Shown in pieces: positions 1-49,677 of a stretch of 64,000 nt of DNA (position 1 is its first letter; the number at the start of each line of letters is the position of its first letter). A program made the position numbers and the translations under genes. The notes below the pieces were generated by a model. The model ran no database searches, had not been told where the DNA came from, and saw only the letters and a list, made by a program, of their open reading frames with translations. The stretch comes from Marsupella aquatica (lineage: Eukaryota > Plantae > Marchantiophyta), in assembly GCA_973895155.1 (NCBI GenBank), contig OZ316892.1, positions 30,324,932-30,388,931 of the forward strand, written 5' to 3'.

Positions 1-2
1 TA

Positions 3-2226: not shown

Positions 2227-3140
2227 GTTCTTACTTAGCCATTTCCCGGCTTTTCACTTACTGAATCGTTGTTTTGACTTTTTGAGGAGTATGAAGAGGC
2301 ATGTCTCTTCGACCCTATGACCTCTTACCCTGTAGGCTTTTACTATAAGACCCCTCCACCACTAGTGTAGAAGTATGGTTAAGTTATGCATTTTTGCCTT
2401 TTCCTTGTGTTAAACTAGTTGATCATGAACCTATGAGTTCGAGATCAGGTTTAACATTTGGAGAGACTTACCTCCTTCTTGTGTTTTTACCTATGATTTT
2501 ACCTGTGATTATAAACACAGGAAGCAAATCTTTTGAGTTGTGATGACAGATTCCTTGTTGGTGACTCATTGCAATCTCCTGAGTTCTTAAAGTTAACTCA
2601 TTGAGTTTAAGTCTCATTGAAATTGATGGATTTTCTTTCATGTTGCTTAGTAACATCTAAATGTTGAAGTAGCCACTCTTTTAGATCTTATCTGAGTACC
2701 ACTTAGAAAGAAAGGATAAGACATGTTTACGACATTTTAAAAGGTACTCTCGTAAGCAGTTTAGATTTGAAAAGCAAACGTGGATTTGAATCCTTAAGTC
2801 TTTTCATTTTGACTTATGTCTAAGGAGTAACCTTGGTCTATTCTAGACTCCCTTAGCGTACTTTGAGATTATTTTCTCTTGTGTTTTGTTAATCATTCCT
2901 TTTTCATTAATTTATGGTTACCCAATGCTGAGTTATCATTGAAAACTACTCACCGCTGTGGAGCGATCTTCAAAATACCTTATTAAAGTAATCAATTCTG
3001 ATTACTATGTGTTAAAGAGAGTTTTTAAACTCTCATTTGTGTTTTTATGTATCAAACCAACCCCATCTTGTTCTTTATGGGAACGAATACCGAGTTTGAA
3101 GACCTTTAAGTGTGTTTTTGGTTCTTCATAGCAAACTACA

Positions 3141-6161: not shown

Positions 6162-6520
6162 TGTGACGCCGCCGGTATGGCGGTTAATGAGTGATTCGGT
6201 CTAACTGCGCTCAACACGCACGTTAGGAGTATCTTAGGCCACTATTATTAGCATAACGACAGTATTTAGGTAATCATTATGGATAGGACATCATTAGGCA
6301 ATAAGGGGGAATTCAGGTTTGGACTGGCGGCGGGTCGCTATTCGCACACCTGGGTTACGAGCGTGGAGGGGCCCCTCCCTCCGGTCCGTATAACAAACTT
6401 AAGGAAGCGACCACTGACCCGCGCTGACTCAGACCGGCGGAGTGGCCGGTACACCTCAAGCGTGAGCGGTTCAGCCTATGGGCGTCGAGGAGACGTCGGG
6501 GGATCGGCAAGCCCTCAAGG

Positions 6521-6528
6521 TATAAAAA
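6521..6528 (+). promoter_or_regulatory. TATA box upstream of the C LTR ORF (5' LTR)
   Basis: GGTATAAAAAGG about 100 nt before ATG 6629, followed by a pyrimidine-rich leader. Same motif at 31186. Confidence 0.55.
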
Positions 6529-19152: not shown

Positions 19153-19199
19153 TACCTACGCTTCCGTTCTAACTTCATATCTCACGGCTTAAGAAATGC

Positions 19200-19217
19200 C
19201 CCCTCCATCTAGCGCCA
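19200..19217 (-). other. Primer binding site of B1 (tRNA-Asn-like)
   Basis: TGGCGCTAGATGGAGGGG, 4 nt after the LTR. One mismatch to the plant tRNA-Asn(GUU) 3' end as I recall it. Confidence 0.8.
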
Positions 19218-19221
19218 AAAA

Positions 19222-23899: not shown

Positions 23900-25756
23900 G
23901 TTGTCGCAACCGTTGATGCGATCCAACAGGCCGGGCTAAGTACAGAAGTCGGTACAGCGAAGGTCTTACCCGAGCCCGGGTCTCCCAAAGACCCACCGGT
24001 AGCTATTCCGGAGAACCGGACATCGCTGCAGGAAGACACTCCAGCCCCTTCCAACATTACGTCCCCAGGGCTGGATGTCACTGCCCCGGCCCCCGCACGT
24101 GTTGACGTCTGCCTGTGCCCAACTCCGGACAGACACAACCTGGACCACCCGGAACTCTTCGTACCGGGCACATTTCTGAATGGGCTTCTAGGAGATTTCT
24201 CTCATCAAATTGCCCGGGATACCGGGGAGTTCATGGCCCGGAAGGTAGCCTGTTTCTTCAACCAGGAGTTAGTTGCCGCAGTAAAAGTCAGTCGGAGGCC
24301 CTTCAGAGGATAGAGAGGTACCGGGAGGAGTCCGTGTACCTAAAGAACGAAGTTGCAGCTCAGGAGGCTGAGCTTCTGCAACTACGACCCAAAGTTGCAG
24401 CCGCCGATGAGTTATTAGCAAAGGCGCACGCCCTTACCGCCCTAGCCGAGCAGGCCAAAGCAGGGAACGAGGCCGAGATTTCACGGCTCCGGTCCCAGAT
24501 TGACAGTTTGAAGAAACAAACTGTCAGCTGGCAGAGAGACTTGGAGGAGGCCGAAGAACGAGCCCAGCGGGACACTACGGAGATAGCCACGCTACAGGCC
24601 AAAGTGGCGCGGCTCCAAACCAAAGCCGAGAAGCAGGACCAGCTGGCGGGCAAGCTGATGAGCGACGCCCAGCAGTTGGAGGAGGCATGCCAGGAGGCAG
24701 CAGAGGAGACGGACGCGGCAAAGCGAGAGAACGAATCTCTGCTGGACCAGGTCCAGCTCCTCAAGGCGGACAACGACAGACTTCGGAGGCAGCGGGATGG
24801 CCGCTCCCACTCGGGCGGCTCTGGCAAGCGTGCCAGGCATTAGCGGCGGAGTAGGGATAGAATAGGGTTAGGAATAACTTAGTCAGGCTCTTGGGACAGG
24901 CACCTGCCTTAGCTACAGCAGCGCTGCCATGCTGTCCAGCCTCCGTAGATCACCATCTTCTAATAAGACATAGCCGTTTTCCGGCCTGACTGTCAGCTTA
25001 GTTAGGACCTTAGTCAGCGAATCTTCGGCAAGTGGACACCCCGTCCCTCGGCCCTTAGTATTTAGTGCACCCCTCGGTAGAGGCGAGGGGGGGGGTTTTT
25101 AGTTGCAGAGTTGGGCGTCCGCGGTATGTGCGGGGAGTCCCGACCTCTGGGAATGAAAGAGTACCAAGGGGAGGGGGTAGGACTAAGCTCGTCGGGCGAG
25201 TGCGGAGCCGGGCTCCGTTGTAGTGTGCACCCTCGGCCTTGAACCTGTTCATTCCGGGGCTGTCGGGTCAACTAAGTGTACGCATATGTTCCCTTTGTAG
25301 TAAAATCCTTTCCCATCATTTTCCTTCGTGTAAATCGAGATTGTATGCATGTGCGCGTGTATGTGTGTGGGCTTCTCGTATATGGGTGGCAGCGCCAGGC
25401 CGAACGCACTACCCGAGACGTGCACCGGGTGCAGCCTGCGGGTAAGTGGTTACGAGCACGGGTTGAGGACCTGTATCATCGAATCCGGATCGAAGGCGGA
25501 CAGCACGAAGGCTTAGAAGCCCTTAAGCCGGGGTCGATCCTGCTATCGACTAAGGTACGTTCCGGCGGCGGAACACAAACCATACCTAGGAGGTGTCCGT
25601 ATTTAGCAGTATGCGCACTTAGCGCTAGTTTACGAGAATAAGGTGCATTACGTGCTTCCCTTCCTGCCCGAACCCTCAGATTTACGAGGGATGTGCCCGT
25701 CTAAGCTGAAGTCTGAGTTAAGGCCGCAGCCGATGACGTGACATAGCCTTTGTTTT

Positions 25757-25774
25757 TGGCGCTAGATGGAAGGG
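25757..25774 (+). other. Primer binding site of C1 (tRNA-Asn-like)
   Basis: TGGCGCTAGATGGAAGGG, 13 nt after the LTR end at 25743. Confidence 0.8.
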
Positions 25775-25867
25775 GCACTCTACATATCGTAGAGGGGAGA
25801 CATGTGCGTATTCACCTAGGCAGGATACATCAAGACGTAGTACTAACCATCGCATTTATATGAGTAA

Positions 25868-28800
25868 ATGCCCGTCACTCATTCTCAAGCAGCTTACTTG
25901 AGGAGATTGACCAACGAACGAGAACGAACGAGAAAGTGCAGTCACGACAAGTTCCGATTCTTCGGACTCGGAAGACTCGCACTCGCCCCGACATATGAAC
26001 ATACCCCCGGGACCTTCGGGGTCTGGTTCTACCGGTCTTGCTGTGGTTCCTCCGCCACCACCACCGCCACCTCCACCTATGGCAGCCGCTCCACCGATGG
26101 CCCGCGCTGCTCAAGCTCCTCCACAAATATCGCAACGATCGCGATTTCATTATTGACCTTTCAAGGGGCGTCATGGGGATGATCCGGATGAATGGTTGGA
26201 TGATTTTGAAGCCACGGCTAAAGCTAATGGGGAAGACGCCATTAAGGTTATCAGTAACCCGAGCATCCCTCCTAAGCCAGGGATTTGGTGATCCCCGGTT
26301 TGTTATAACTGTGAAAAGCCATGACACTTTGCAAGGGAATGCACCGAACCAAGACGTCAGGGAGATGGCCGAGGCACCCCACTATGTCAAGTCTGCAAAA
26401 TGGAGGCTCATTCCACAGCCAACTGTCCGTTGGTAATCGCTGCTCAAACGAGCACAGCTAGACCGGCCTAGGCTGGACCGGCCACGAGCGATGCAATCGT
26501 CCAAATGATTGCTGTAGAATGGCAAGATGACAACACTGAGTGGGTGAATTTGGTGGACGTAGCAGAGCACCCTGATCCATTGGATGAGGCCGAGTGCTAC
26601 CGAGTGTCGACAAGGGCCGAACGGAAGGAAGAGAAGACGGAGGAGAAACGAAGGAAAAAGCAAGATACTACTCCGGTGCAGCCAGCGATAGATATACCCC
26701 CGGAGAAGGACGATGACTACCGACGAGACGACCCGAAGCTATTTTTCCCCCGCATCGAAGAATTGGTAAAGAAACAGTTGGAGGCCTACGAAGCTCGGGA
26801 ATACCAGAAGGCAATCGATAAGGACATCAAAGCAGCCGAGACCGCCCGGCGCCAGGAGCAAGAAGAGCAAGAAAAGCAAGAGGAAGCCAAGCTGCAGCCG
26901 AAGGAGGATAAAAAGGAGAACTACAATATTAAGGAAGACGTGAAGAGTTGCCCGGTTACAGCGACGGTGGGGCAACTGCTGCAGAACAACCCACAGTACA
27001 GACGGCAACTAAGGGAGTTGCTCATGGGTTGCCGAAGGAGGAGACTACCCCGAGTTGGGATCGCGGACTGCAACATGATATGCGAGGACCTTGGGGCACC
27101 GGACATCTCGATCGAAATTAATAATTGTACCATCAAGATGGTTCTTGTAGACGGAGGAGCGGGAGTCAACATCATGACCGAAGAAATGTCAGTCAAGTTA
27201 GGATACCTCACGTATCAACCCACAGCCCGAGCTATCAGATTAGCAAACGGGGCAAGGGTCCTCCCATTAGGCACGCTCACACGAGTGCTCACTCTGGTGG
27301 GAGGGGTGGAGTTCTATCTCAACTTCCTAGTCATGAGGCCGGTTCGTCCCTCCTCTTACCCGGTTCTTCTGGGCAGGCCGTGGCTGTACGGTGGCCGCGT
27401 AGTCACGGATTGGGGAAAGAAGGAGCTACGGTTCGGGGAACCCACCGTACGGGTATCATGGGCAATAGACGATTATCAAGGAGAAACCCCACAAGGACCC
27501 GAGGAATATGATTCGGAGACCTCGGAGGAAGAGGAACTCAATATGATTGAACTCATCTCATCCCTGTCCGAGGAAGATGTCTTCGGAGTTGAAGCAACCC
27601 GCGAAACACATCTCCTAAATTACCCGAGGACTGCCATTGAGTCCACCCCAAGCACATCTACTGCCGGGGATGAGGAAACGCACGAACAACTCGTCGAGAC
27701 CAAGGACACGGCTCCAGCTAAGCAGGGAGCCGAGGCTGCTTCTATCATTGCAGAGCCTCGTGACCACGAACCAGCCCAGCAACCGCCCGAGGCCGAAAAC
27801 TCGAGACCGAGACATAAGAAACGAGTCTCATGGGATCCGTCCATTCCGCAATTGGAGGAAGTAACTCCAATCCCGAGACCAATACCGGTTCCACCCATGT
27901 ACGGAGGAGTTTGGCTAGCTGAGCTTGATGCGAGCCTGGACCCGAGCCTGCGAAACCAGGTTGAAGTCATCAGGAAGGAGCACTACCGGAAGTACACCAT
28001 TGGGATGGACAAATCTTTTAACCTGGGCCACGCTCTGACAGGGGAGGCTGAAAAATCCATCCAAGCTTTGCTCAAGGAATATGAAGATGTGTTTGCATGG
28101 AGTCATCATGATTTAACAGGCGTCTCCCCCGAGTTGGGAGAACACATGATCGATCTGAACCTAGGAGCCCATGCGGTACGGCAGCGACAACGTCGCATGA
28201 ACCCGAGGTACTCCATCTTAGTGAAGGAGGAGATTGATCGTCTCCTCGCCGCCAATATCATCTACCCGGTAATGGCCAGCGACTGGGTCTCTCCCATTGT
28301 CATTGTACCAAAGGAGGGAGGTACGGATGGAAAACCTAAGATTCGTATTTGTCAGGACTACCGTAAGCTGAACGACGCAACCCGAAAAGACCATTACCCA
28401 TTACCATTCACGGATAAGGTTCTAGATATGGTAGCCCGAAATGAAATCTATACATTTCTTGACGGGTATTCAGGTTATAACCAAATCTGGATTCGCCTCG
28501 TGGATCAGCTCAAAACAACTTTCACTACGGAGTGGGGGACTTTCGCATTTCGGAGGATGCCGTTCGGACTGTGTAACGCCCCGGCCATGTTTCAGCGACT
28601 CATGATGAATATCTTCCATGATTTCCTACGGGAATTTCTGGAAATATTTATCGACGACTTCGCCATTTTTGGAATTGTCGCCATGCACCCCGAGCACCTA
28701 AGACGTACGTTGCAACGATGCCGAGAGGTTAACCTCAAGCTTCATCCCGCCAAATGCTTTTTCGGGGTAGAGGAGGGAGTGTTACTCGGGCATCGTGTGT

Positions 28801-30828
28801 CCAAACGGGGTATCGAGGTCGATCAAGAGAAGGTCGCGGCCTGGATGGCGGTGGTGTTCCCCGTGGATCAAAAAGCAGTACGATCCTTCTTGGGCTGTGT
28901 AGGGTATTACCGCCGGTTCATTAAAGATTTTGCTAAAATAGCTTTGCCCTTAACAGAGATGATAAAAAAGGACGCGGTGATCGAGGAGACCCCAAGGAGA
29001 CGGGTTGCTTTCGAAGAACTCCGTAAAAGACTCACCACCGCACCTATCATGGTCACTCCAGACTGGAACAAGGAGTTCCACGTGTATGTCGACGTGTCAG
29101 GGTTCTGTATCGGGTCTGTGCTTAGACAGCTTGATACAGACGGACGCGATCACCCCATCTACTTCGCTAGCCGTCAATTATTCACAGCCGAAAAAAATTA
29201 TTCCCCCACGGATCGAGAGGCACTGGGCATAATCTACTCATGTAAGAAGTTCCGGCACTATCTGCTCGGCCACAAGGTCATCTTCCACACGGATCACGAC
29301 AGCCTGAAGTACATGGTCAACAAAGCAGACGTAACGGGACGGATAGCCCGTTGGGTGCTACTTCTCCAGGAATTTAACTATGAAGTTCGGGTTCGGCCAG
29401 GAAAGGCACACCTCAATGCCGACTTCTTTTCACGGCTGGACGGCGTACCAGTCGATCAGCCAATTGATGATATTTTTCCGGATGAGGAGTTGTTCCACGT
29501 AGGGGAGGGGACACCAACGTGGTACGGCTCGATAATCACCTTCCTTTTAACAGGCCGCATCCCTGACGGCATCAATCAGGAGGCCGCCGCTGTGTTTTTA
29601 CGGAAAGCCGGGCCTTACGTCATGATACAGGGTCACCTACATAAGGAAGGTATTAATGGAAAGTTATGATGCTGCTTAGAGTATAAGGAGACGCTTATCA
29701 TGATGCGGGCCCTGCATGAAGAAGAAGCTGGAGGCCATTTCGCGGCAGTCACGACAGCCCGAAAGATTCTGGACTCGGGGTATTGGTGGCCTACATTGCA
29801 TCGGGATGTACAATGCTTCATTAAGGGCTGTGACTTGTGTCAGCGAGCTGGGGCCCCGAGGCGGGCTCATCATCACCCGCTCACATCTGTGCTGCCATCG
29901 GCACCATTCGAAAAATGGGGAATTGATTATATCGGGCCGTTTACTCCCGTTACCCAAAGGCGGAGATGCAGGTACATCCTATTAGCTATTGATTACTCCA
30001 CCAAGTGGGTCGAAGCGCGGGCTACGGTAAAGGACGATGCCGCAACCAGTGCCAGATTCTTATACGAACAGATTTTCACCTGATTCGGCCCACCCTTAGA
30101 ATTGGTAAGCGACCGTGGAACCCACTTCCTCAATGACACCGTAGCCCAGCTTATAGAGCATTACCTAGTCAAGCACCGCAAGACTACCCCGTATCATCCT
30201 AAGGCCAACGGGATGACAGAGAGAGCCAATGGTATCATTGGGAAGATCCTCAACAAAACTGTAGCTGCGCACAAAACGGATTGGGATGATAAGTTGTACG
30301 CAGCGGTGTACTCGTATAATCTAGCTTACAAAACTACTACGAGTCACAGCCCGTACTTTCTTGTGTTCGGCCAACATTCGTTGGTACCCGTCGAGTTTGA
30401 AGTACACACTCCATGGGTCAGCATTCGGGATCGCTTACCTGAATCTGAAAGTTCGTCAGACCGAGCTTATCAGATTGAAGCCCTAGAAGAAGCACGGCTA
30501 CTAGCAGCTCGACACGCCGTGAAGAAACAGGCAACTTTGAAGAAGCAGCACGACAAAGGACTACGGAGGGTCGACATCGTGGCAGGCGATCTAGTCCTTC
30601 TGTACGATAGTAGGTACATGCAGTTTCCAGGGAAGCTTCATACCCGGTGGTTAGGGCCCTTCCTTGTCAATCAGATCTACCGTAACGGATCTTTGGAGCT
30701 TGCGACGTATGCCGGCGATTTACTCCCCCCGTGAATCAGCTACGATCGTGTAAAAAAAGTACCATCATCAAGATGACGACGCCGAGAGTGATGTTCGCGA
30801 GGACGCTTCACAATTAAGCAGGGAGCTA
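25868..30828 (+). pseudogene. C1 gag-pro-pol (capsid largely deleted; stops and frameshifts in gag and integrase)
   Basis: Gag remnant DDPDEWLDDF, CYNC knuckle, PR VDGGA, RT FIDDF and RNase H in ORF 26505-29669. Integrase pieces at 29700-30083 and 30102-30734. Confidence 0.92.
30816..30828 (+). other. Polypurine tract of C1
   Basis: AAGCAGGGAGCTA directly before the LTR TG at 30829. Confidence 0.8.
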
Positions 30829-33800
30829 TGTGACGCCGCCGGTACGGCGGTTAATGAGTGATTCGGTCTAACTACGCTCAGCACGCGTTAGGAGTGTCTT
30901 AGGCTGCTATTATTAGCATAACGACAGTATTTAGGTAATCATTATGGGTAGGACATCATTAGGCAATAAGGGGGAATTCAGGTTCGGACTGGCGGCGTGT
31001 CGCTATTCGCACACCCGGGTTACGAGCATGGAGGGGCCCCTCCCTCGGGTCTGTATAACGAACTTAAGGAAGCGGCCACTGACCCGCGCTGACTCAGACC
31101 GGCGGAGTGGCCGGTACACCTCAAGCGTGAGCGGTTCAGCCTATGGGCGTCAAGGAGACGTCGGGGGATCAGCAAGCCCTCAAGGTATAAAAAGGGAGCC
31201 GACCCTTTGGAGTGCACCAGTCCATCAGTCCACGCGCCAGCTTTGACCCCAGCTCTCTCGCTTGCTCTAAGTCGCCACTACTATCTCCTCTGAATGTCGC
31301 ACACGATCCTCTCCAGCTCGGCCATTCGATTCTAGACGCAGTTCCTATCTACCGGAAGGCACTTGGCCGACTCATTGAAACACGCCAACCCGCATCGATA
31401 CGAAATCGAACGCGAGTACGAGAGAGCTATCCGCCTAGCCGGACGTCACCACTATATCCTTAACTTTGACTACCCGTCTCAGAGCGAGCTTTATCGACCA
31501 GCAGAGGTATTTGGGTACTTCTTCAACGGAGACAAATATATCGGTTTCTGGGAAGCATTGCTTCGGCTTCCGGACGAGGTCTTCAATATCCCGGGTACGA
31601 TCGACTTGCAACGACATCACTTTGACCACATCCCTGCTCAGGTTCGGGCTATCATCAACAGCGAGTCCAGCACTACCCGTTCGACAAGGTCGTCTGCACT
31701 CGCTTTGGAGAACTTCTACCAGCACCTACAGAGCTTCATGGGAACTCGGCCATCAACCAACATGACCAACTCACCCGTACCCGTACCCATGCAACCTCAG
31801 GCTCAACCTCAGGCTCAACCTCAGGCTCAACCTCAGGCTCAACTTCAGCTTCAGCCTCAGCCGCAGCCTAGCCAAACCCCACCACCGATCGCCCAGCCGG
31901 CACAAGTATGCTCCGTCATCAACGCTGTGGATCTTAGCGATGACGACGAGGCTACCCCACCCTTGACCAGGCGGCCCAGAGGAACAAGCGCTCAGGGGGC
32001 CGGCACTATATCGTCCCTGCCCCCTGCTCTGACCCCAGGAGCGGCCCCGGCAGACATGGTGACCGTGGCCGCCCCGGGCCCGTTACTAACGGCAGTGGCA
32101 CTACCCAGGCCCGATCGGGAGGATGGGGAAGTGTCACCTTCCCCGAGCCAGTCAAGGGGGAAGAAGAGGAAGGAATCCGCCACTGCATCCGGGTTACCAT
32201 TGGCCACGGTAGCCGTGGCCAAGGTAACAATGCACCGCATGGGGGAAAACGTGCATAAGAATATCCTTCATCCCAAGCATGCGGTGTACCTGAAGACTCA
32301 GGGATTCGAGCACCTCGCCGCTCTGCCCTGGAACACTTGCAGGTACTACGGGGAGGACATGACGGAATTCATCAAGAATTATGATGATACACGTCAGCAA
32401 ACTCGGCTGCGGGGAAGGAATATGTCCCTCACGGAAGAACGGCTCAGGATGATCTTCGGATTACCCAAAGGTGACCATCGAGTCGAATCAGGGCTCCCGG
32501 GGGCAAGGGAGCCAAGTACCAATCTTCAAGTTTTCCCTCAGAGGGAGCAGTGGACAACGGGTTCGTGATGAGGACCTGCCTCATCCCCGAGATAGCTGAG
32601 CGACTGGAGTTCCAGAGGTACGCCCTCCACATGATGGAAACCCGGGGGGAGATCTCCGCCGCCCAAGTTATCCAGGTCGAGAACTATCGACCTAGGAAGT
32701 GGGCGTCGTACTTTGCTAAGAAATTCCATGAAGAGATGGAGCGGCGAAGGAAGACACTGTACATTGGCGGGAAGGCGTACTTTGCTAGCCATATCGAGAT
32801 CATTCTTGAGTGGTACGCTCGGTTTGATCGACGAACCCTTCCCCGTGTCAACGTTACAAAGATGGTCCCGGCTAGGTGGGTTTTCCGGGCCTTGGAGAGA
32901 CAGCCCCAACCCGAGGCCCGAAGTCCGGCGGACACGCCAGCTTCACCCACCCCACCTCCACAAGTAGCTGTGGTCGTAACCGAGGAGGTACCGGAGGGGT
33001 CGGTTGTCGCAACCGTTGATGCGATACAACAGGCCGGGCTAAGTACAGAAGTCGGTACGGCGGAGGTCTTACCCAAGCCCGGGTCTCCCAAAGACCCACC
33101 GGTAGCTATTCCGGAGAACCGGACATCGCTGTAGGAAGACACTCCAGCCCCTTCCAACATTACGTCCCCAGGGCTGGATGTCACTGCCCCGGCCCCCGCA
33201 CGTGTTCACATCTGCCCGTGCCCAACTCCGGACAGACACAACCTGGACCACCCGGAACTCTTCGTACCGGGCACATTTCTGAATGGGCTTCTGGGAGATT
33301 TCTCTCATCAAATTGCCCGGGATACCGGGGAGTTCATGGCCCGGAAGGTAGCCTGTTTCTTCAACCAGGAGTTGGTTGCCGTAGTAAAAGTAGGTCGGGC
33401 CCAGTCGGAGGCCCTTCAGAGGATAGAGCGGTACCGGGAGGAGTCCGTGTACCTAAAGAACAAAGTTGCGGCTCAGGAGGCTGAGCTTCTGCAACTACGA
33501 CCCAAAGTTGCAGCCGCCGATGAGTTGTTAGCAAAGGCGCACGCCCTTACCGCCCTAGCCGAGCAGGCCAAAGCAGGGAACGAGGCCGAGATTTCACGGC
33601 TCCGGTCCCAGATTGACAGTTTGAAGAAATAAATTGTCAGCTGGCAGAAAGACTTGGAGGAGGCCGAAGAACGAGCCCAGCGGGACACTACGGAGATAGC
33701 CACGCTACAAGCCAAAGTGGCGCGGCTCCAAACCAAAGCCGAGAAGCAGGACCAGCTGGCGGGCAAGCTGACGAGCGACGCCCAGCAGTTGGAGGAGGCA

Positions 33801-34854
33801 TGCCAGGAGGCAGCAGAGGAGACGGACGCGGCGAAGCAAGAGAACGAATCTCTGCTGGACCAGGTCCAGCTCCTCAAGGCGGACAACAACAGACTTCGTA
33901 GGCAGCGGGATGGCCGCTCCCACTCGGGCGGCTCTGGCAAGCATGCCAGGCATTAGCGGTGGAGTAGGGATAGAATAGGGTTAGGAATAACTTAGTCAGG
34001 CTCTTGGGACAGGCACCTGCCTTAGGTACAGCAGCGCTGCCATGCTGTCCAGCCTGCGTAGATCACCATCTTCTAATAAGACATAGCCGTTTTCTGGCCT
34101 GACTGTCAGCTTAGTTAGGACCTTAGTCAGCGAATCTTCGGCAAGTGGACACCCCATCCCTCGGCCCTTAGTATTTAGTGCACCCCTCGGTAGAGGCGAG
34201 GGGGGGTTTTTAGTTGCAGAGTTGGGCGTCTGCGGTATGTGCGGGGAGTCCCGACCTCTGGGAATGAAAGAGTACCAAGGGGAGGGGGTAGGACTAAGCT
34301 CGTCGGGCGAGTGCGGAGCCGGGCTCCGTTGTAGTGTGCACCCTCGGCCTTGAACCTGTTCATTCCGGGGCTGTCGGGTCAACTAAGTGTACGCATATGT
34401 TCCCTTTGTAGTAAAATCCTTTCCCATCATTTTCCTTCGTGTAAATCGAGATTGTATGCATGTGCGCGTGTATGTGTGTGGGTTTCTCGTATATGGGTGG
34501 CAGCGCCAGGCCGAACGCACTACCCGAGACGTGCACCGGGTGCAGCCTGCGGGTAAGTGGTTACGAGCACGGGTTGAGGACCTGTATTATCGAATCTGGA
34601 TCGAAGGCGGACAGCACGAAGGCTTAGAAGCCCTTAAGCCGGGGTCGATCCTGCTATTGACTAAGGTAAGTTCCGGCGGCGGAACACAAACCATACCTAG
34701 GAGGTGTCCGTATTTAGCAGTATGCGCACTTAGCGCTAGTTTACGAGAATAAGGTGCATTACGTGCTTCCCTTCCTGCCCGAACCCTCAGATTTACGAGG
34801 GATGTGCCCGTCTAAGCTGAAGTCTGAGTTAAGGCCGCAGCCGATGACGTGACA
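30829..34854 (+). repeat. C1 3' LTR (4026 bp)
   Basis: Uninterrupted direct repeat of the 5' LTR. Confidence 0.95.
31294..33956 (+). pseudogene. C-family LTR-encoded protein (~887 aa reconstructed: QPQA repeat, PMD-like core, C-terminal coiled coil)
   Basis: Pieces 31363-32568, 32550-33134, 33336-33632 and 33654-33956. Lesions differ from those of the 5' LTR copy, so the consensus is one open frame. Confidence 0.85.
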
Positions 34855-36121: not shown

Positions 36122-36125
36122 TTTT

Positions 36126-36143
36126 TGGCGCTAGATGGAGGGG
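36126..36143 (+). other. Primer binding site of B2 (tRNA-Asn-like)
   Basis: TGGCGCTAGATGGAGGGG. Confidence 0.8.
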
Positions 36144-36190
36144 GCATTTCTTAAGCCGTGAGATATGAAGTTAGAAAGGAAGCATAGGTA

Positions 36191-39125
36191 ATGTCTGACC
36201 TTACGCCGAGGGAAGAAAGAGTGATTCAACGGGAGAGAGCTCGACTGCAACAGCTCGCCGGGTGGCATGATACACAGCAACTGAGAGGGGCAGGAAGAGC
36301 TAGTAGCTCCGAAACTGGAAGTGGCATTGAAGAAGAAATACCAGAAGAAGAATCGGTAAGGAGAAGTGAGTCTCCAACCGACATGGGGGAACCAGAGGCA
36401 CGGCCAGACAAGAGGCCAGGGACCAGACTGAGCCAACGGTCGTGCATTCATTACAAGGCATTTCATGGGAGAGGAGATGAGGATCCGGACAAATGGTTGG
36501 ATGACTTCGAGGGAACCGCTGCAGCAAATGGAGAATCGGCCATCAAGATGCAAATTCTTCTCGGCCTGTTCAAAGGTGAGGCTAGGCCATGGTACAGAGC
36601 ATTGGATGTGGAAGATCAAGCCATCTGGAATTCTTTTAGATCACTATTCGTCAAAGAATTTCGACCCATTGGAACTTCAGAGTTAGCAGTGCTGAAGTTG
36701 GGACGACTTCGGTTCAAGGAGAACAAATCCTTCAGGAAGTTCTTGTAACGCTTCCAAAAGTTGGTAAGACGTACAAAGACCAATGCATTTGAAGGTATGC
36801 AACTTCAATGGTTAGTGAATGCTTTGCCACAGAAGATGAGTTTTGCAATTAGGAAGGAGAACCCGGAGACCTTGGCCGAGGCAATTAAGAATATTCAATT
36901 ATACATTAATGCAGATATCACAAGCCGGAAGAAACAACTTAAGTCTGAGAGTTCCTCATCAGAGGAGGGATCGCCCCATAAGAAAAAAGATAAGAGAAAG
37001 AAACATTCTAAGAAGTCAAGAAGTGATAACTCAAGCTCGGATAGTGGAAATAGCAAGAGTGAGTCATCTTCTAGTTCTGAAGAAGAAAAAACTAGGAAAA
37101 GGAAGGGCAGAAGGAGGAGAAAAATGAAAATCAAGCTAGAGGCTAAAACACCAGATAACATCGTGGCCCTTACCGAGCAACTTAAGGCTATAATTGCAGA
37201 GGTGAAGCCGAAGAAGAAGGTAGTACAGGAGGATAGCTCTGTATGGTGTGCCTTATGTTATAAGACCGGACACCATAAAGATGCGTGTCCTAAACTTAAT
37301 GCTAATCATGTTCGGCATGTGGCCGAGATCAGACCGTGTCAGGGAGAGGTAGAGTACTTTTTAGGAGATGTCGCTGATAGTGTTTTCGGCATCAGTGAGA
37401 CTGGAGCACGAGACCTATCCAACAGACCTGCATCTCTATGGTCAGGATTAAGGAACAATCTGGGAGAGATGTATCCTCGGATTATTCAGAACCCGTCAAT
37501 ACCCCCTAGGCCGAATGTACAGAGATTTGCGGCATGCTATAACTGTGGTCAACCTGGCCATTTTGCTAGAGAGTGCTCGAATGCATGCAAACAGGGTGAT
37601 GGACAACCAGCTCAGCTATGTATGGGATGCCGACAGGAAGGTCATATGCTAGGACAATGTCCTACTTGGTTGGCAGGCCTGGCCGCAAATCATAGGCTCT
37701 TGCCAGTCAAGGTCTTACCGCCAGGTACTACCCCCGGAGGAGTTCAAATCAACCACATCGAACTAGGATGGCAAGCGGATGCCGAGGCAGAGTTTGCACC
37801 ATCTGATGATGAGGCCGAAGCCCTATCAACCTTCTCTGAAGAGGATTTAGATCATGATTGCTACCGAGTCTCTACTCGATCTACCAGAAGGAAGGAAAGA
37901 TGGGATGGGCTGGCCAAAAATAAAGCAAGGGTGAAGGAGGAAAAGATCGACTCTTCGTCAACATCAACGGAAGGAGAGGGGAGGGTTCCGGCAACAGAGG
38001 TAAGCCATGAGCCCACCAGTGAACCCAATCCTTCACAAGACAGCGACTTCAATCGAGATCATCCTAAGTTATTCTACCCCTCTGTTACGGCTAGTGTTAA
38101 GGAACAACTGCGAGAATTAGAAACCCTGGAGAATACCAAAGCCATAGCCAAGGATGTGAAACGAGCAAAAGCGTTGTTTGCTTCGGAGGATCCAACAGCT
38201 GTGGAAACTAGCATGGCAAAACAGTCCGAAGCCAAGATAGAGACACCACCGGAGGAGAAGCCGATTGTTCCCTATGACCTGGCTAAAGATGTGCTAGAGT
38301 CTAGAGTCTCGGTAACAGTTGGTCAACTATTGAAAAATAGCCCGTACTTCCGAAAGCAATTAAGAAAGGCGATTCTCGGCAAACCGAGATTACCCAAGGT
38401 AGCAACCAAATCCGACGTGCTGATGATAGAAGAAGATCAAGGAGCCCCAACTTTACCATTAATGATTCAAGGAGAAATATTACTACGGGTACCCATTGAT
38501 GGAGGATCCGAGGTATGTATTATGATTGATTCAACAGCAAAAGGATGGGGTCTAACACCGGAGATGACTAGAAGAGTGCTAAACATGGCCAATGGGTATC
38601 AGGTCATTCCCACGGGAGTGTTAACCGGCATCAAGACAGAGATAGGAGGTATCTTCTTTAGCATTAACTATGTAGTAATGAAGCCGGTAAACCCTACGTC
38701 GTTTCGGCTATTAATTGGCAGGCCATGGTTGTACCTAGCCGAGGTAATAGAAGATTGGGGTAAAAAGCAGTTCACTTTCGGGACCCCCTCTATCACGGTA
38801 TCCTGGGACACTAAGGATGACCGTAGGAAAAGCACAAGGGAAGTAGATGGGTACGACAGTGGACTAGAGTCAGCCAATGAAGTACGTTGGCTAGAATGCC
38901 TCACTGACCTAACCGAAGAAAGTGTCTTTGGACCAGAGGTACCCCCAGTGGATTATGGCATGAACCAATGGGAGGTAACTTGGAAGAAGAAGATGAAGAG
39001 GTCGAGGACTGCTTTACAATAGAATCCACCTTTTTAGTTGCAATTCCGGAGGAAGTAAAGGAGGTAGACCCATCGGATGAAACGACTAAGCGGGGAGCAG
39101 TAGCAGGGACAGTGGATTTTCTGTA
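36191..39125 (+). pseudogene. gag: B2 gag-protease (stop at 36746, frameshift near 38945)
   Basis: ORFs 36191-36748 and 36761-39022 are near-identical in protein to B1 Gag-Pro. Confidence 0.92.
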
Positions 39126-40881
39126 GGCATTGTGGCAGAGCCGACGGGATCCACAACGCCATCGATCATCGGCAAGGAATTAAATACCAAGGGATCGGCA
39201 TACAAGCCGATTACAAGGGCAGAACAAATTGAGGCCCTATTAGAAGTCGGGAGAGCACAGCGACCTGACCCTCAAGAGCAAGAGATGGAGGAGATACATA
39301 AACAGAATCCAGAGCCGAGTCAGGCAGCGAAGCCGACAAATAATTCAAAACCGAACAGACCGGCAAGGGGACAATCTGTGGACAAGAAGGGAGAAACCGA
39401 CTCGGCTAGTACAGCCAAGATTCCAGTTTATGGAGGTATGCGACTGGAGAGACTGGAAGCCGAGCTGGACCCGAATTTGAAAAAGCAGATTAATATGATC
39501 CAAGCACGGCAATATCGGAAGCTCGACTTAGGAGAGGGAAGGGAACTGAACTTAGGGAGGGACCTAGCGCCTGAACTCAAGAAAGAGATCAGTGATTTAC
39601 TGATTGAATTTCAGGATGTGTTTGCATGGAGTCACCAAGATCTGAAGGGAGTAGACCCAAAACTAGGAGAACACCAAATCAATCTCATGCTAGGGGCCAA
39701 ATCATTTCGACAACCAATTCAAAGGATGAACCCGAAGTATTCCCTGTTGGTCAAAACGGAAATCGACAAACTAGTGGAAGCCAGATTCATCACTCCAGTC
39801 CTGCATTCAGACTGGGTGTCTCCAATTGTGATTGTTCCCAAGAAAGCTGGACCTGATGGTAAACCAAAGATCCGGGTTTGTCAGGATTACAGGAAGCTGA
39901 ATGAGGCGACGTTAAAAGACCATTTTCCCTTACCCTTTACTGATATTGTACTAGACATGGTAGCCAGTTGTAGTTTGCCATAGAGAACCAAAAATCACAT
40001 TTTAAAGTCTCTAAACTCGGTATTCGTTCCCTTTAAGAACAAGATGGGGTTGGTTTGATGAAATAAACTAAAAATAAAGTTTTAAGCTCTTGTGTCACAC
40101 ATAGTAATCAATCTTGACTACTTTAATCAGGTACTTTGAAGATCGCTCCACAGCGGTGAGTAGTTTTTGATGATAACTCAACATCAGATAACCATCAATT
40201 AAGCAAAAGGTTGCAATTAACAAAACACAAGGAAAAATCTCTCAGAGTATGCTTAAGGGAGTCTGGAATAGACCAAGGTTACTCCTTAGACATAAGTAAT
40301 AATGGAATAACTTTAAGGGAATCCAAATCCACACGGCTTTTCAGATCTAAACTGCATACTAGAGTATCCTTTTAAAATGCCGGCAACATGTCTTGACCTT
40401 TCTTCCTAAGTGATACTTAGTCAAGATCTAAAAGGATAAATACTTCAGCATTTAGATGGTACTAAGCAACATGAAGGTGAAAACATCATTTCCAATGCAA
40501 CTTAAACTCAATGAGTTAACTCTAAGAACTTGTGAGATTACAATGTGTCACCAAAGCGGAATCTGACATTATAATTCACGAGATTCATAACTGAGGTTTT
40601 ACTTCAAGTATTTGGGTTCCAAAATACAAGAAGGAGGTAAGTCTCTCCAAATGTTAAACCTGATCTCGAACTCATAGATTCATGATCAACTAGTTTAACA
40701 CAAGGGAGAGGCAAAACTGCAAAACTTAACCATCTCTCTACACTAGGGGAAGAGGTATAAATAGTGATGAACTACAGAATAAGAGGTCACAGGGTCGAAG
40801 AGACATGCCTCTTCATAACCCTCAAAAAGTCAAAACGACGATTCAATAAGTGGAAAGCCGGAAAAAAAATGGCTAAGTATG

Positions 40882-40946
40882 AACTCTTAAACTCTTAAAA
40901 ACTTAAACTCTTAAAAACGTAAAAACTTAAACTCTTAAACTCTTAA
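40882..40946 (+). repeat. AAACTCTT-like tandem repeat in the A2 LTR
   Basis: aactcttaaactcttaaaacttaaactcttaaaaacgtaaaaacttaaactcttaaactcttaa. Confidence 0.65.
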
Positions 40947-41151
40947 TTTCAGTATACTAAAAATTGAGTAGATTCAACTATTTTTAACTTTCTACTCCTG
41001 GTTAGGAAAACTCTGAAATTTTTCCAGCAGGGTTTCCTAGGTACAGACTACAGCCTAAAGAAGTATGACAGCTTCTAAAGCTCTAGAACACATTTAGAAA
41101 AATTGGTAAAAGTACTATACTTTTCAATACTAGCTAAAAAGATAGTCTCCT

Positions 41152-43554
41152 TCAAGCTTGTTGTCGAATATCATCGGGTTCGAGCAGCTCCACGTAGGTG
41201 ACAGTCCGATTCTGTGTTACCTCCATCAGCTCAGTCTGACGTGGTGATCCTCGAGAGTAGGGTAGGCACCTTAGTTGTCTCTCAGGATACATCAAAGGCA
41301 TTCGCTTCATCAAATAACAGGAATCTATACGAAGAGCTTCTCTGTATATCCCTAGTACATCATAGTTGTTGCAGGTGGCAGCATATACTTGGGGATAGTG
41401 ATGCAGAAACTCATCACTATTCATCATCCTGGAATAGAAGGGTCGAAGTCTCCACCTGACATCTCTGAAATATCGATTGAAATGAGCTAGAGTCTGAGAA
41501 GTGACATTATTCCAGATCCTCTGTTTCTCAGCCAATGTACTGGTTGAAACAAGGGTAACCTTGGGTTCTCGTGGTATGTAATCGTGCTGTGGAGCAGTAG
41601 ACTTCTTGCTCTGCATCAGGAAGGAAATCACAAAATCTAGGGCATAGGCGGCAAAGTTTCCAAAGTATGCCAGAGCTAGGTCTGGATCCTCTACCTCTAC
41701 ATCACCTTGGAGTAGCATCATAGCAAGAATAGGCCGAAAGTAAATTGAGTCAGTCCAGAACTCATCAAATTGTGCCATTTCCACTCTAGAAGTTCCAAGA
41801 CACCTAAGATCAAAAATGTAGCTTGCCTCAGTCTTCTTTAGATAGTAGTATCTCCAGAACTCTCCAACCGGTGGTCTATTGGCCTGCATTACTTTGCAAG
41901 TGGTGACATACCTGTGTACTTCTGACTCAGGACGTCTAGGGTACCTGCTTGCGATAGTAGCATTCCTGGGGGTTTGGGTAGACGAGGTGATCACTGCTAC
42001 TAGATTTGGATTTGATTTTAGAGCTACATCAATATTCTCAAATCCTTGCCTTGGGGATGACCAAAGAGAATTTTCATAAGACCTAATAGAGTCATCATCT
42101 GAGGGCGGATCAGAGTCTTCGGGAAGATCCCTTCGAACATAAGGATGCTCATACTGTGTCTGATGATAGGACGGTCCTTCGGTGGGTTCATAGTTAGAGT
42201 CAGGGCTGTAAGGGGGAAAACTTCGACTAGGAGAAGGGGTAGCAGTGGGACATCGCTGCACCAGGTTGCTAACTACAGTGACTATCTGCCGAGGGTTACA
42301 CTGTAGTATCTCCAGTAGATCATCCACAATAGCTGCACAGCTAATATTGTCTGTTACTGGAACAAGGTCACCACCTGCTTGAAAGGAGGTCTGTTGGGTA
42401 ACAGGGGTGAGAGTCACATATTCCACTGGTGTTGTCTCTCCTGGAGGAGAGGTCATCCTGATAGGGCTTAACTGATCAGGGAATGGTGACTTCAAACTGA
42501 CAGCTTCCATTCTTAAATCATTGACAGCATCGAAAAGACCATCATCACTGCAACTAAGAAGAGATGTCAACTTATCGACGAGTTGTTGATTCGCTTCTGC
42601 CTTTGGAGGTGTGGATGAGTTGGTCCTTAGATTGATAGTTGCAAGAACGAGTTCAGCAACGTCGGCTGGTTGCTCAGGGAAATCTCTGTCTTCGCCAGCT
42701 CCAGATTCTCTTGTATAAACTCTTGGTGAATACACCATGTTAGCCAGGGGGTGTCGAACCAGCTCTAAGTTATGAGCAGGTGTATCTTCAAATTCCATCT
42801 CAGCATCCACATTCTGATCATGAGAATCCAGGGGAATAGCATCCACTGGTTCTTCCATACTCAGGTCTTCTTCAATGCCTAACTCAATCAAGAGCAGCCC
42901 TCTCTCCGTTCTCTCCTCTGGATATAAACATTCATAAGCATGATAGAGTTGAGACAAATAAACCTGCAGATGAGTGGGTCTACCTGCCTTCATGGTTCTC
43001 ACCTGATCCTTCATCACATTGAAAATTAACAGGGCCCAATTAACCTGGACGGCTCCACTGTGTGCGGCTACAATTGTATTCACCAAAGCCACTGGACAGA
43101 GGGTTGGCTTCTTCGGGTGTAAAATGGGTACTAGAAATTCCAGAAGCACTCTCAAATCTGGATAAGTACACTGTGTCAAATTCCAGCCATTGGTGAGATT
43201 GCGAATCCCAGAGAAGTAGGGTGTAGACAAATCTTTCTTCTTTGAATATAATCCTTCTCCTTCTGAAGGGCAGCGGAAGGCATAAGCAATTTGTTCTACA
43301 GTCCATAAGCTGGGTCGAGCTCTAATAGTTTGTTGACATTCAGGAGCAAGCATTGATCCCTTTACAAAATCCTGCAAATATGTGTCGAGCTCTACTTTCC
43401 AAGGGACGGCAAGTAGATGCTCCAAACCTAGCTGTTGTAAGGAAGTCCGTAAATTTGCATAGCTATCGGGCGCTTGTGGAATTCGGGCGACTATGCTCTT
43501 AGGAATTGCCAGAGTGTCAACTCGGTACTGTTCATCAATACCGAGGTTCGCCAT
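41152..43554 (-). CDS. Intact 800-aa LTR-encoded accessory protein (PMD-like N-terminal domain, disordered linker, conserved C-terminal domain)
   Basis: ATG-to-stop ORF with no lesion. Homologous to 3-1946 and to the D ORF (LEFLVPILHPKKP...VNWA vs FRFIVPILTPDKP...VNWA). Confidence 0.85.
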   Translation of the reverse strand: MANLGIDEQYRVDTLAIPKSIVARIPQAPDSYANLRTSLQQLGLEHLLAVPWKVELDTYLQDFVKGSMLAPECQQTIRARPSLWTVEQIAYAFRCPSEGEGLYSKKKDLSTPYFSGIRNLTNGWNLTQCTYPDLRVLLEFLVPILHPKKPTLCPVALVNTIVAAHSGAVQVNWALLIFNVMKDQVRTMKAGRPTHLQVYLSQLYHAYECLYPEERTERGLLLIELGIEEDLSMEEPVDAIPLDSHDQNVDAEMEFEDTPAHNLELVRHPLANMVYSPRVYTRESGAGEDRDFPEQPADVAELVLATINLRTNSSTPPKAEANQQLVDKLTSLLSCSDDGLFDAVNDLRMEAVSLKSPFPDQLSPIRMTSPPGETTPVEYVTLTPVTQQTSFQAGGDLVPVTDNISCAAIVDDLLEILQCNPRQIVTVVSNLVQRCPTATPSPSRSFPPYSPDSNYEPTEGPSYHQTQYEHPYVRRDLPEDSDPPSDDDSIRSYENSLWSSPRQGFENIDVALKSNPNLVAVITSSTQTPRNATIASRYPRRPESEVHRYVTTCKVMQANRPPVGEFWRYYYLKKTEASYIFDLRCLGTSRVEMAQFDEFWTDSIYFRPILAMMLLQGDVEVEDPDLALAYFGNFAAYALDFVISFLMQSKKSTAPQHDYIPREPKVTLVSTSTLAEKQRIWNNVTSQTLAHFNRYFRDVRWRLRPFYSRMMNSDEFLHHYPQVYAATCNNYDVLGIYREALRIDSCYLMKRMPLMYPERQLRCLPYSRGSPRQTELMEVTQNRTVTYVELLEPDDIRQQA

Positions 43555-43739
43555 AGCTCTCCTCCGTTATGTTGAGTGCACTAAGGAGTGGGGGAGCTGG
43601 CAGAAACAATGGAGATGGCAGTAAATAAGTCAGGAGTGAGCGCTCGAGGTCTAATTCCCCTTCCCTTCAATTCGCGCTCGCCATCCCGTTGCTAAGTCCC
43701 GTTGAAAGTAGCCGTAAGACGTCGCGATCATCGGTTGCC

Positions 43740-44012
43740 AACTCGTAAGGCACAACTCGTAATGCCCTAACTAGTAAGTCGTAACTACTATACTCGTAAC
43801 TCGTATACTGTCGCAAACTAGTAAACTCGCTTACCCGTAACTAGTAGACTCGTGAAGTGGAGCTTACCCGTAACTAGTAAACTCGTGAAGTGGAGCTTAC
43901 CCGTAACTAGTAAACTCGTAAAGTAAGTTTACTTCGCCATCAGTTTACTCGTAAAAGAGTAACCCGTAGACTGGTATACTCGTAATCTGAGTATACTCTT
44001 AAACTCGTAAAC
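43740..44012 (+). repeat. Degenerate ACTCGTAA/ACTAGTAA array with ~32-bp tandem units, upstream of the A2 ORF
   Basis: Unit gcttacccgtaactagtaaactcgtgaagtgga occurs about three times at 43829-43925, plus many aactcgta copies. Confidence 0.75.
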
Positions 44013-45204
44013 TAAAGTAACTTCCCGATATTAACAGTAAGTGTAGTTTAAACAACGTAAAAAAATTTAAAAATTTCAATTTCTTCATACTTCTGGAATT
44101 ACTCACTACTTACACCAGTCATGAACTATATTCATTCATGGATGGGTACTCTGGCTATAACCAAATCAGGATTAGGCAGGAAGACCAAATCAAGACGGCC
44201 TTCATCACGGAATGGGGGATCTATGTCTTCAATCGTATGCCGTTTGGACTCTGCAACGCACCAGCTATGTTCCAACGATTGATGGTGAACATTTTCCATG
44301 ATTACTTGAGAAAGTTCATGGAAATCTTCATTGATGACTTTGCAGTATTCGGGAAGGCATCGAAACATGCTAAATACCTCAGGAAAACCTTCATGAGATG
44401 CAGAGAGGTAGGTCTCAAGTTACAACCAGATAAGTGTTTCTTTGCAGTAACCGAGGGGGTGCTCCTAGGTCACAAGGTATTCAAGGAAGGGCATTGAGAT
44501 TGACAAGGGTAAGCTAGCAGTATGGCTAGATATCATGCAACCTAAGAACATAAAGGATGTAAGATCCTTCTTGGGATGCATTGGTTACTATCGCCGGTTC
44601 ATCAAGGATTTTGCCAAGCTAGCTTTACCATTAACCAACATGCTCAAGGCAGGAGCAGACTTCGAACCCACACCCGAACGAGTAACAGCGGTGGTGGAAT
44701 TGAAGCAGATGTTAGTAGAGGCTCCAGTCATGATAGCACCGGATTGGAACAAAGATTTTCATGTCTTTGTAGATGTCTCAGGCTTCTGTATCGGCTCAGT
44801 ACTAAGTCAGTTGGATGAGAAAGGAAGGGACCATCCCATATACTTCGCAAGCCGTCAGCTTGCCGATGCCGAACGGAACTACTCCACCACAGAGAGAGAA
44901 GCATTAGGAGTCATTTATTTCTGTAAAAAGTTTAGGCATTATTTACTAGGGTACAAGGTAATCTTTCATACCGATCATGAAAGTTTGAAGTACCTAGTCA
45001 ATAAGCCGGACCTTACAGGCAGAGTAGCAAGATGGATTTTGCTATTACAGGAGTTTGACTATGAGCTGAGGATCAAGCCAGGAAAGCTGCACGCCAATGC
45101 CGACTTCTTTTCAAGAATCATAGGTGAACCTGCCACGGATTGCATCGATGATCGATTCCCCGACGAGGAACTATTTGTTGTGGAAATAGCTGATACATGG
45201 TACC

Positions 45205-47206: not shown

Positions 47207-49677
47207 TCAACTATCGCTTGGTGGCATCTTTCGCTTGAGGACAGCGGGGGGAAATCTCCGGGTCTTCTTAAGACTTCTGGCCAAAGAGTGGGATTTGAAT
47301 TGCTTCCGCTTCTCAAGACCGGATCGGCGGACAGGGGGAAAAGAGTCCTCAATGGTCTCCATCTGAATGATCTCGGTACTTGGCTCCTCATCCTCTTCTA
47401 AAACATCCTCTATTGGAATGTCATTAACTGGAGAAGAATTGCAAGGCTCAACAGAAGGAATCGGTTCAGATAAGTCCTGGTCTTCTTCAAACTGAGGCTA
47501 AGTAAATTCAGGAGTAACCAATGGAGGATTGAACAACTGATTGTCTTCCACCACCTTAGCAACAAAAACATATTCACGGTCAATCATCGGGGTAGGGCAG
47601 GAGTACCGGCGAATTTCCTCTGACAACTCAAACTTTTCATCAGTGAGAAGCAGTATCTGAACTCGGGCGGATGCAAGAATCGCCCTCTCCAATTTTTTGA
47701 CACTGAATCCGGAATCACCTCCAATTTGCTGTATCCGGTCAAAGACTGTAGGGCTTTCCTGTTCTCGAAAAAGCCTTCCAAAAGTACCTGGCTCTCCAAA
47801 GTGACAATCGCCCTCCGCTTCTGGATTAGGGAACCAAAATTACATGAACCACTGGAAACGTCTGGTATCAAGTTGACAGTAGAGCCAGAGTGAATCTCAA
47901 TGTCACCAGCGACCAAGTTTGAAAGATGCTCATCTAACTTGGCTAGATAGCCACATTGAAACTTAGTAGCCCACCCTGCAAGGTTTCCAAGGAGTCTGGT
48001 AGCTAGAGAAAGATCATCAACCTGCAGGTCTCCAAAAAGTAAGGCAAACGCTAGCAATTCTCGGGCATCCGTAGTGGATTTACTCCAGACACTATAGATT
48101 AGGGTCAATGATACCTTTCTGGTCTTTTCAAAGTCAGGTAAACAATAATAATAACAGACCATGAACTTTTGAAAATGGTAGTAGCAAAGGAAATTGACCG
48201 AGGGTGTAATGAAATGAATTAACCCGTGGGAAAATCGCTCTAAGTCTTGTCTCCCTTCACACGATAATACAGTCAAATCATTCCGGATCGGTAAAATGAC
48301 TGCTTCTGTCTGAGGTCTCTCTTCAAGAATCATTTTGGGTGGAGGAATGGCAGGAAGACGGTGGTCAACAAAATCTTGCAATTCGCCTACCACCTTGAAT
48401 AGTACTTCATACTTCCGGTCCAGAAGTCCTTTCTGATTAGTAATGGCTGTGGCAATCCGGCTCAAACTCTTCTCATCAGTCTGCCATCCTTCAAAGGTCA
48501 ATGCCGCAAGTTGGAGTCGTTCTACTGTCGATAGAGCGATTGTTTGAGCTGCTTCTCCGATCTGTACAACAGAATGTTGAATTGCTGGCAAAACAGTTCC
48601 TTGGACCAATTCTTGAATTTGCTTCTCCAAGCGCTTCGTCTCTGTATCATGGTTCTGCTTCTCTTTATTAGCAGCAGCAACTTGAACTAGCAATTTGTCA
48701 ATGTGATCAAGAAGGTCAGTCGAAGGGCAAGAAAAACGATTTGACAAGTCCTCCACAAGTTTAGCATTTGCGGAATTTGCCTTACAAAACTCCTTTGTAA
48801 CTGCACGAAATTTTGCTTCAATCAGCGAAATGTCTTCTTTGCCTTCCAGATTCACAAACGGCACTGCTCCCTCTCTCTTCTTGATCTTTGATGCTCTAGG
48901 AGGCGATTTGACTGTCTCTTGTCGTTTCCGCAACACTCGGCCGCCGATCACTTCAGATTTGACGATCGGTTCAGCACAATCTTCCTCTTCGCTGTCAGTG
49001 GCATCCTCAGCTGAAGGCGGATCTTCCATGAGTGACCGATTGGCCAAGGCCTCTTCATATTCTTGGAGTTCCATAGATGACAGTTTCCCCTCCGATCGAT
49101 ACAGATGATACAACATTGGTGAAATAAAGAAATCCATCCCATCCTTCACCTTTTTGCATCGTAGCTGAAACGAGTCCCAAAGAAGACTTGCCCAGTTGAC
49201 CGGCTTCCCCTTCTCATATGCAGTGATAATCATCGCTGCCAGCTTTCCAGTAATCCTTTTTGGCTTATCAGGAGTAAGGATGGGCACGATGAAGCGGAAA
49301 ATCGCCCTAAGCACAGGATCACAAGCAGAATCGGGCGTGAAACCTTCCTTTGTAAACGCACTCAAAAATCGATCCTTGCAAATGTCATGGAAGAGACGGG
49401 AAGATGTAAAATCCTCAGGGGTGAGACCTAAAGATGAAATGACATAGCAGTCCGCTACTGCCTTCAGACTGAATGCTGTATAATCCGACCTGGGGCTCAA
49501 CCCTTTTGAGGTCCTATTCCGCAGCCGAATTTCATCCACCAAACTTGCGCTACTAATCACCCAAAGGAAATCCGCAAGCGATTCTATTCCCACTTTCCGA
49601 TAGTTGTCTACATTCGCCACGATCTCTGAATCAGGTGGCATCAAAACCATCTTTGCCTTTCCCATCGCGCTCCCCAA
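47207..49677 (-). pseudogene. D internal extra ORF, homolog of the family A LTR protein (697-aa ORF plus a frameshifted C-terminus)
   Basis: Shares both the N-terminal block and the C-terminal block (LAFALLFGDLQVDDLSLATRLLGNLAGWA vs LAMMLLQGDVEVEDPDLALAYFGNFAAYA) with A. The alternative frame EEIRRYSC resembles EALRIDSC and continues, through one TAG, to 47207. Confidence 0.8.

Follow-up and report, generated by a model that had tools for sequence, protein, structure and literature searches.

Organization of the window

The window, i.e. the whole stretch of 64,000 nucleotides that was analyzed, is a nest of elements in which A1 and D lie within the 5′ LTR of B2, A2 lies within the reverse transcriptase (RT) gene of B2, B2 is cut off by C, and B1 lies within the 5′ LTR of D (Table 1). 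Four insertions, those of A1, D, A2 and C (at 3141, 6162, 39969 and 45205, respectively), are located in or against B2, making up a dense nest of related Ty3/gypsy families. Exact 5-bp duplications were identified for both B1 and D. Element C (45205-57980) has a 5′ LTR that lacks the last 139 bases of the 3′ LTR, its flanks differ at 1 of 5 bases, and the remainder of B2 is missing beyond it, features that suggest a deletion or rearrangement. The region 58163-58220 contains a GC-rich hairpin followed by CTAG, which we take to resemble a Helitron 3′ end, and repeat arrays of ~210, 129 and 25-28 bp extend up to ~60620; on the minus strand, a 171-aa ORF at 62134-62649, with no Pfam match, presumably resembles the C-terminal part of CACTA TnpA-like proteins.

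Table 1 Features of the A2 locus and of the surrounding elements.
Feature	Position	Strand	Evidence or remark
Solo LTR A2	39969..44114	- (element sense)	4146 bp, TG...CA; in other copies, a PBS adjoins the 39969 end
Target site duplication, left copy, CCAGT, 5 bp	39964..39968	.	Empty site found
Target site duplication, right copy, CCAGT, 5 bp	44115..44119	.	Empty site found
Intact accessory ORF, 800 aa, ATG-to-stop, in U3, sense	41152..43554	-	Chance frame estimate; dN/dS
N-terminal domain, aa 1-230; fold predicted to resemble VANC21, features akin to Transposase_32/ATHILA	42865..43554	-	Structure model, Atlas
C-terminal domain, helical, aa 541-800; highest conservation in the protein, without a clear match in structure searches	41155..41934	-	dN/dS, model
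CpG-rich array preceding the ORF, with 13 TTACG-core motifs; candidate promoter or binding sites	43713..44060	-	Shuffles
Second short-motif array, after the ORF	40880..40950	-	1 TTACG vs. 6 at the same place in A1
TATA-like site, candidate main LTR promoter	40756..40764	-	~790 bases before the LTR 3′ end; A1 letters differ
U5-end motif	40023..40043	-	16/21 letters shared with the corresponding place of the C LTR (sense strand); weak alone
Copy A1, another member of the A LTR family, truncated at the window edge	1..3140	+	ORF 3-1946 open; B2 LTR sequence next
B2 internal region, Ty3/gypsy host of A2	36122..45204	+	RT interrupted by A2
B1, full element, two 4678-bp LTRs with long frames related to the A N-domain	8320..23899	-	LTRs differ by 10 substitutions, no gaps
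Element D, ~4.0-kb LTRs with related broken frames	6162..34854	+	B1 inside its 5′ LTR
C ORF, 693 aa, homologous, outside the LTR, between integrase and PPT	47584..49665	-	C 3′ LTR 45205-46404 (1.2 kb)

Ends and insertion site of A2

A first-pass annotation of this DNA had described A2 as a unit with TG and CA termini and a perfect 5-bp target site duplication, and this description is borne out by the CCAGT copies on both sides, by an uninterrupted relative of the target and by the empty site itself. The target of the insertion is the RT gene of the Ty3/gypsy element B2; the flanks of A2 align to the uninterrupted pol of B1 with an overlap of exactly 5 bases (15374-15378), and contigs that join 39963 to 44115, i.e. 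the empty site, were found in three of four public runs (X1, X2 and X4). A deep contig ends exactly at 39969 in three of four runs (X1, X2 and X5), as expected with many different flanks beyond this point, and there was no loose contig end at 44114 among the 24 loose ends listed (681 others).

The interior of A2 also agrees with the annotation in that neither internal repeats nor gag or pol were detected. Self-BLAST (word size 7) yielded no terminal direct repeat, just short motif arrays; any internal same-strand copy of the first or the last 25 bases has at least 9 mismatches; and no A2 frame produced a gag or pol Pfam match. There is no match in A2 to the PBS or pre-PPT motifs of the neighboring elements, the pre-PPT motifs of B, C and D being absent at a level of at least 17 mismatches in 38. 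The anatomy of a TRIM or LARD, that is, short terminal repeats with a PBS and PPT inside the unit, was looked for in these searches and is absent.

Primer binding site and orientation

In contigs from two of four public runs (X1 and X2), the sequence beyond the 3′ end of A2 consists of 5 spacer bases, a run of T and then a PBS. All 11 PBS letters visible in X2 are identical to the PBS of element C, and 10 of the 11 letters behind the A2-family end are those of the Athila Asp/Asn PBS in the ATHILAfinder paper. The X5 contigs at the 39969 end have other, unrelated flanks. The depth of the PBS-side contig in X1 is up to ~51, a value obtained by subtraction that presumes no third contig, compared to a depth of 86 for the contig that goes no further than the terminus; these depths do not represent copy numbers. 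Because the PBS continues from the 39969 end, this end is the 5′-LTR end in other copies, and the strand of the ORF is the sense strand of the element. The opposite assignment, with the plus strand as sense and the ORF antisense, had been drawn from a plus-strand TATA-like word at 40756 and is ruled out by the junction of the PBS with the 39969 end. The U5-end motif scored 25 on the opposite strand vs. 22 and does not by itself settle the orientation.

Given this polarity, the 800-aa gene appears to sit in U3, upstream of the TATA-like site at which the promoter is putatively placed. The first 25 bases of A2 (44090-44114) and the TATA-like region (40756-40780) show an inverted match of 18 of 25 bases, which is borderline chance by a rough hand estimate; A1 differs there.

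The X1 and X2 contigs, with their spacer and Asp-type PBS past the 3′ end, together with the absence of TRIM/LARD anatomy, uphold the solo-LTR reading of the first-pass annotation, and A2 is very probably a solo LTR with a gene in U3. The same annotation had offered the alternative of an LTR-less unit mobilised by integrase in trans; a TRIM/LARD-like element moved whole in this way belongs to the same alternative. No contiguous two-LTR parent was seen among the short contigs of the runs, in line with such an origin, but with terminal direct repeats, PBS and PPT all absent inside A2, the element would have no means of reverse transcription, and the PBS joined to the A2 end in other copies likewise renders this origin highly improbable. 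It is also improbable that A2 arose by deletion within an element whose LTRs were shorter and is composed of the start of a 5′ LTR, an internal extra ORF and a 3′ LTR. Sister element C has such a layout, with a 1.2-kb LTR, and A has ~1.19 kb past its stop codon; however, one deletion that keeps the internal ORF must retain the PPT and the second LTR start, and a single deletion thus cannot yield A2, where neither is present (the first 25 bases do not recur, the best same-strand match having 10 mismatches, and the pre-PPT motifs are missing, as described above). Furthermore, A1, at a dS of ~1, shares the layout of A2.

The open reading frame, copy A1 and selection

Inside the unit, the ORF of A2 is flanked by 560 bases at one end and by 1183 bases at the other, and the chance of an 800-codon frame at the composition of A2 is ~1 × 10−21. 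The uninterrupted ATG-to-stop frame reported earlier is indeed there (43554-41152), on the minus strand, which had been left unstated. Copy A1 is cut at the left edge of the window; its protein is 73% identical to that of A2, and the 1.19 kb downstream of the A1 ORF, ending at 3140, are 81% identical to A2. There is no PBS after A1 (3140), where B2 LTR sequence was found instead.

Over 637 aligned codons, the comparison of A1 with A2 gave dN of 0.17 and dS of 1.14, a ratio of 0.15 (NG86; bootstrap 0.11-0.20). The ratio is 0.06 (0.03-0.10) for aa 541-800 vs. 0.27 for the linker (aa 231-540), which matches the previous description of A1 as a copy that is also open, with a conserved C-terminus and a variable linker. 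The purifying selection that this description was taken to suggest, and for which the A1/A2 ratio was called for, holds for the family as it transposed, the value of 0.15 being a measure of that history and not of the solo locus.

Among the X1 contigs, three long ones show 5 differences from A2 over 2122 bases (~0.24%). At this divergence, an unselected frame stays stop-free 68-77% of the time, so that the open frame of A2 is no evidence of selection at the solo locus; the solo copy is probably just young, and youth alone would explain the open frame. Variants of the A family in which most or part of the ORF is deleted were observed, the contigs of X6 and those of X1 and X2 skipping 41251-43688 and 42204-43091.

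Protein domains and predicted fold

The model of the N-terminal domain is confident (pLDDT 95). Its best structural match is VANC21 bound to DNA, with a Foldseek E-value that is not significant (E = 0.22, TM = 0.42); with VIA-align, 213 of the 230 residues are aligned (Z = 7.0, rmsd 4.7, 11% identity), a score in the range, below 8, where according to the tool's own warning a match may mean a mere common arrangement. VANC21 is alone at Z of at least 5 among 48,161 chains, the runner-up reaching 4.3. The predicted similarity is moderate, yet clear of the other matches and extending over the whole domain; a shared fold proves no function. Language-model features (Atlas) for aa 1-230 give a lead only: 23 of the 30 matches belong to Transposase_32 clusters and 3 of the 30 to ATHILA, the top match scoring 0.91 with 158 shared features vs. 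170 typical for true family members. The domain is not basic (22 K+R, 24 D+E), and no segment of the A2 protein is strongly hydrophobic (the best Kyte-Doolittle mean over 19 residues is 1.46), which counts against an Env-like role.

The C-terminal domain is modeled as all-helical (pLDDT 87). All its Atlas matches are below 0.9, the best VIA-align Z is 4.0 and the best Foldseek E-value is 0.56, which does not imply a novel fold.

At the sequence level, the ORFs of A2, A1 and C have no Pfam match (E = 0.05), and a word-index protein search retrieved one relative, P0001. A profile of A2, A1, P0001 and C detected 447 proteins at E ≤ 0.001 among 1.84 billion; among the 150 relatives listed, 12 match best in the C-terminal domain, 1 matches over the full length and the remainder match in the front part. 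None of the 60 relatives scanned, out of these 150, matched PF20167, PF03078 or PF10536 (Transposase_32, ATHILA and PMD; E = 0.01). Longer forms of the C-terminal domain were found in 0 of 5387 candidates, and 0 of 73 pattern matches were confirmed in a single-protein query for related loci in JGI metagenomes. A sequence search against solved structures returned just coiled-coil noise from alignment overhangs.

Motif arrays flanking the gene

The first 560 bases of A2 contain 13 TTACG motifs, compared to a mean of 2.3 and a maximum of 7 in 1000 shuffles, and their CpG ratio is 1.32 vs. 0.43 in the ORF. The TTACG array is absent from the 3′ internal region of C and sparse in the B LTR.

Position of the gene in neighboring elements

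Both domains of the A protein align to the 693-aa ORF of C (E = 1 × 10−10 and 4 × 10−8), and its N-terminal part is weakly similar to frames in the LTRs of B and D (E = 4 × 10−4 to 8 × 10−3 in a set of 14 window proteins). The simplest account would be a single 3′ extra ORF in the ancestor, the site of plus-strand priming lying before the gene in A, B and D and after the gene in C. The two B1 LTRs (8320-12997 and 19222-23899) share two frameshifts, near LTR positions 1336 and 2351, which indicates that the break in the gene did not prevent the element from being copied; the B2 LTR is broken elsewhere. The shared frameshifts fit supply in trans and a dispensable gene equally.

Riccia sorocarpa provides the closest named relatives of the C pol (up to 71% over RT-RH). 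In a tree built without lineage-labelled references and without A pol, the B, C and D pol proteins group with Riccia and Calypogeia proteins, B1 and D clustering with a Calypogeia fissa protein (support 100/99; 27 of 28 rows kept). The genome that carries these elements is probably that of a liverwort. No aRH Pfam match was obtained for the pol of B1, C or D.

Proposed mechanism and implications

Reverse transcription copies U3 to both ends of an LTR retrotransposon, and LTR-LTR recombination leaves one LTR. A gene in U3 would thus be present in two copies per insertion, of which recombination leaves one. Our preferred reading, with a probability of roughly 0.45, is that A2 is a solo LTR of an Athila-like Ty3/gypsy element that carries an 800-codon gene in U3, the product of which would be a VANC-like DNA-binding protein with an anti-silencing effect in trans. 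The gene of A would be the usual 3′ extra ORF, included in the LTR or not depending on whether the PPT lies before or after it; the first 560 bases may drive the gene; the N-terminal domain, predicted to fold like VANC21, would allow the protein to bind the arrays of short TTACG-core motifs that its own LTR contains; and the product could act in trans, in the manner of VANC, to protect the family against silencing. Provided that A2 is a solo LTR carrying a gene in U3, we consider the odds of the anti-silencing role to be about even. The effect may go in either direction, as the structural relatives of VANC include host MAIN, a protein with a role in silencing.

The protein could, conceivably, have another job in the parent element, such as chromatin tethering or target choice, RNA handling or particle assembly, and the solo copy would then be a recent silent passenger. 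This is a serious possibility, if short of an even chance: the near-identical copies are ~0.24% diverged, a distance at which frame survival of 68-77% is expected without selection; the most conserved part of the protein is the C-terminal domain, which has no VANC match; and orthologous LTRs with MMTV sag gave no sign of selection after insertion in the available text of PMC4667437. On the other hand, VANC21 ranks first in two structure searches and spans the whole N-terminal domain, and arrays of short motifs with turnover between subfamilies flank the gene.

Beyond the preferred reading of A2 itself, it is conceivable, although unlikely, that several liverwort Ty3/gypsy families shifted the plus-strand priming site ahead of a VANC-like gene, such that their solo LTRs would be cassettes (motif array, gene and end signal) supplying an anti-silencing protein in trans. 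Should this be the case, the main route by which the host purges retrotransposons would leave behind helpers for the family.

Solo-LTR formation is usually seen as the end of the coding life of an element, and plant LTRs as non-coding; A2 keeps a large gene of a family under selection. Since one window contains both arrangements, the gene being part of the LTR in A, B and D but not in C, the shift of an LTR boundary and the capture of a gene become directly addressable. If the fold prediction is true, the long-unexplained extra ORF of Athila-type elements acquires a testable function, and sequence-specific anti-silencing would be extended from MuDR to LTR retrotransposons. The C-terminal domain is a conserved, confidently modeled fold without a clear match among solved structures.

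Comparison with known systems

The extra ORFs with PMD of Ogre/Tat elements, considered here together with host MAIN/MAIL1, are, like the A gene, accessory ORFs of non-chromovirus elements. In the accessible text of PMC4408406 and PMC13547354, however, the Tat ORFs occupy the 5′ or the 3′ end of the internal region of elements with an aRH domain, whereas the pol of B and C has no aRH Pfam match.

VANC21 of VANDAL21 (MuDR; PDB 9LNJ and 9LNK) is the best structural match of the A N-terminal domain, and motif arrays in non-coding DNA are common to both systems. VANDAL21 is a dicot DNA transposon, whereas the A gene is encoded in an LTR; the two proteins are 11% identical, and binding or demethylation by the A protein is only predicted. 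According to the sections available of PMC5735166, VANC targets tandem arrays of short motifs, with turnover between families and differences between subfamilies; the A arrays likewise differ between A1 and A2, although the motif is a different one and its role as a target is putative. VANC is itself described as structurally homologous to MAIN in the part of PMC13547354 consulted.

Athila (OTA) elements share with the A family an Asp-type PBS past a short spacer, a 5-bp duplication and a sense extra ORF 3′ of pol, as well as the Atlas likeness of the N-terminal domain. Sister element C has the textbook Athila layout, with the extra ORF between pol and the 3′ LTR, whereas the A gene is inside the LTR. 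In the available portions of PMC6317226, PMC11728184, 10.64898/2026.03.20.713144 and PMC7264820, extra ORFs of the Athila type are placed in the internal region, on either the upstream or the downstream side of gag-pol, and 1-2 kb is the default length of Athila LTRs; LTRs of non-chromovirus elements of up to ~5 kb are also known (PMC6317226, same portion). The A gene differs from this pattern by its location in a 4.1-kb LTR, the lack of a match to PF03078 or PF20167 and the additional C-terminal domain. Titles and abstract openings (covering few subscription papers and no supplements) revealed no plant retrotransposon gene inside an LTR.

The closest precedent for A2 is sag of MMTV, likewise a protein gene in U3 that is kept in solo LTRs. 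In the text available of PMC4667437, 490 of 527 sag contigs are without any other retroviral gene, and dN/dS below 1 is attributed to the replicating lineage. The MMTV gene is carried by an animal betaretroviral LTR, whereas A2 is a 4.1-kb LTR of a plant Ty3/gypsy element that encodes an 800-aa two-domain protein, with no relation between the proteins indicated. The survival of a U3 gene in solo LTRs is known from MMTV-like retroviruses; A2 is very probably a plant solo LTR with an intact, family-conserved gene in U3.
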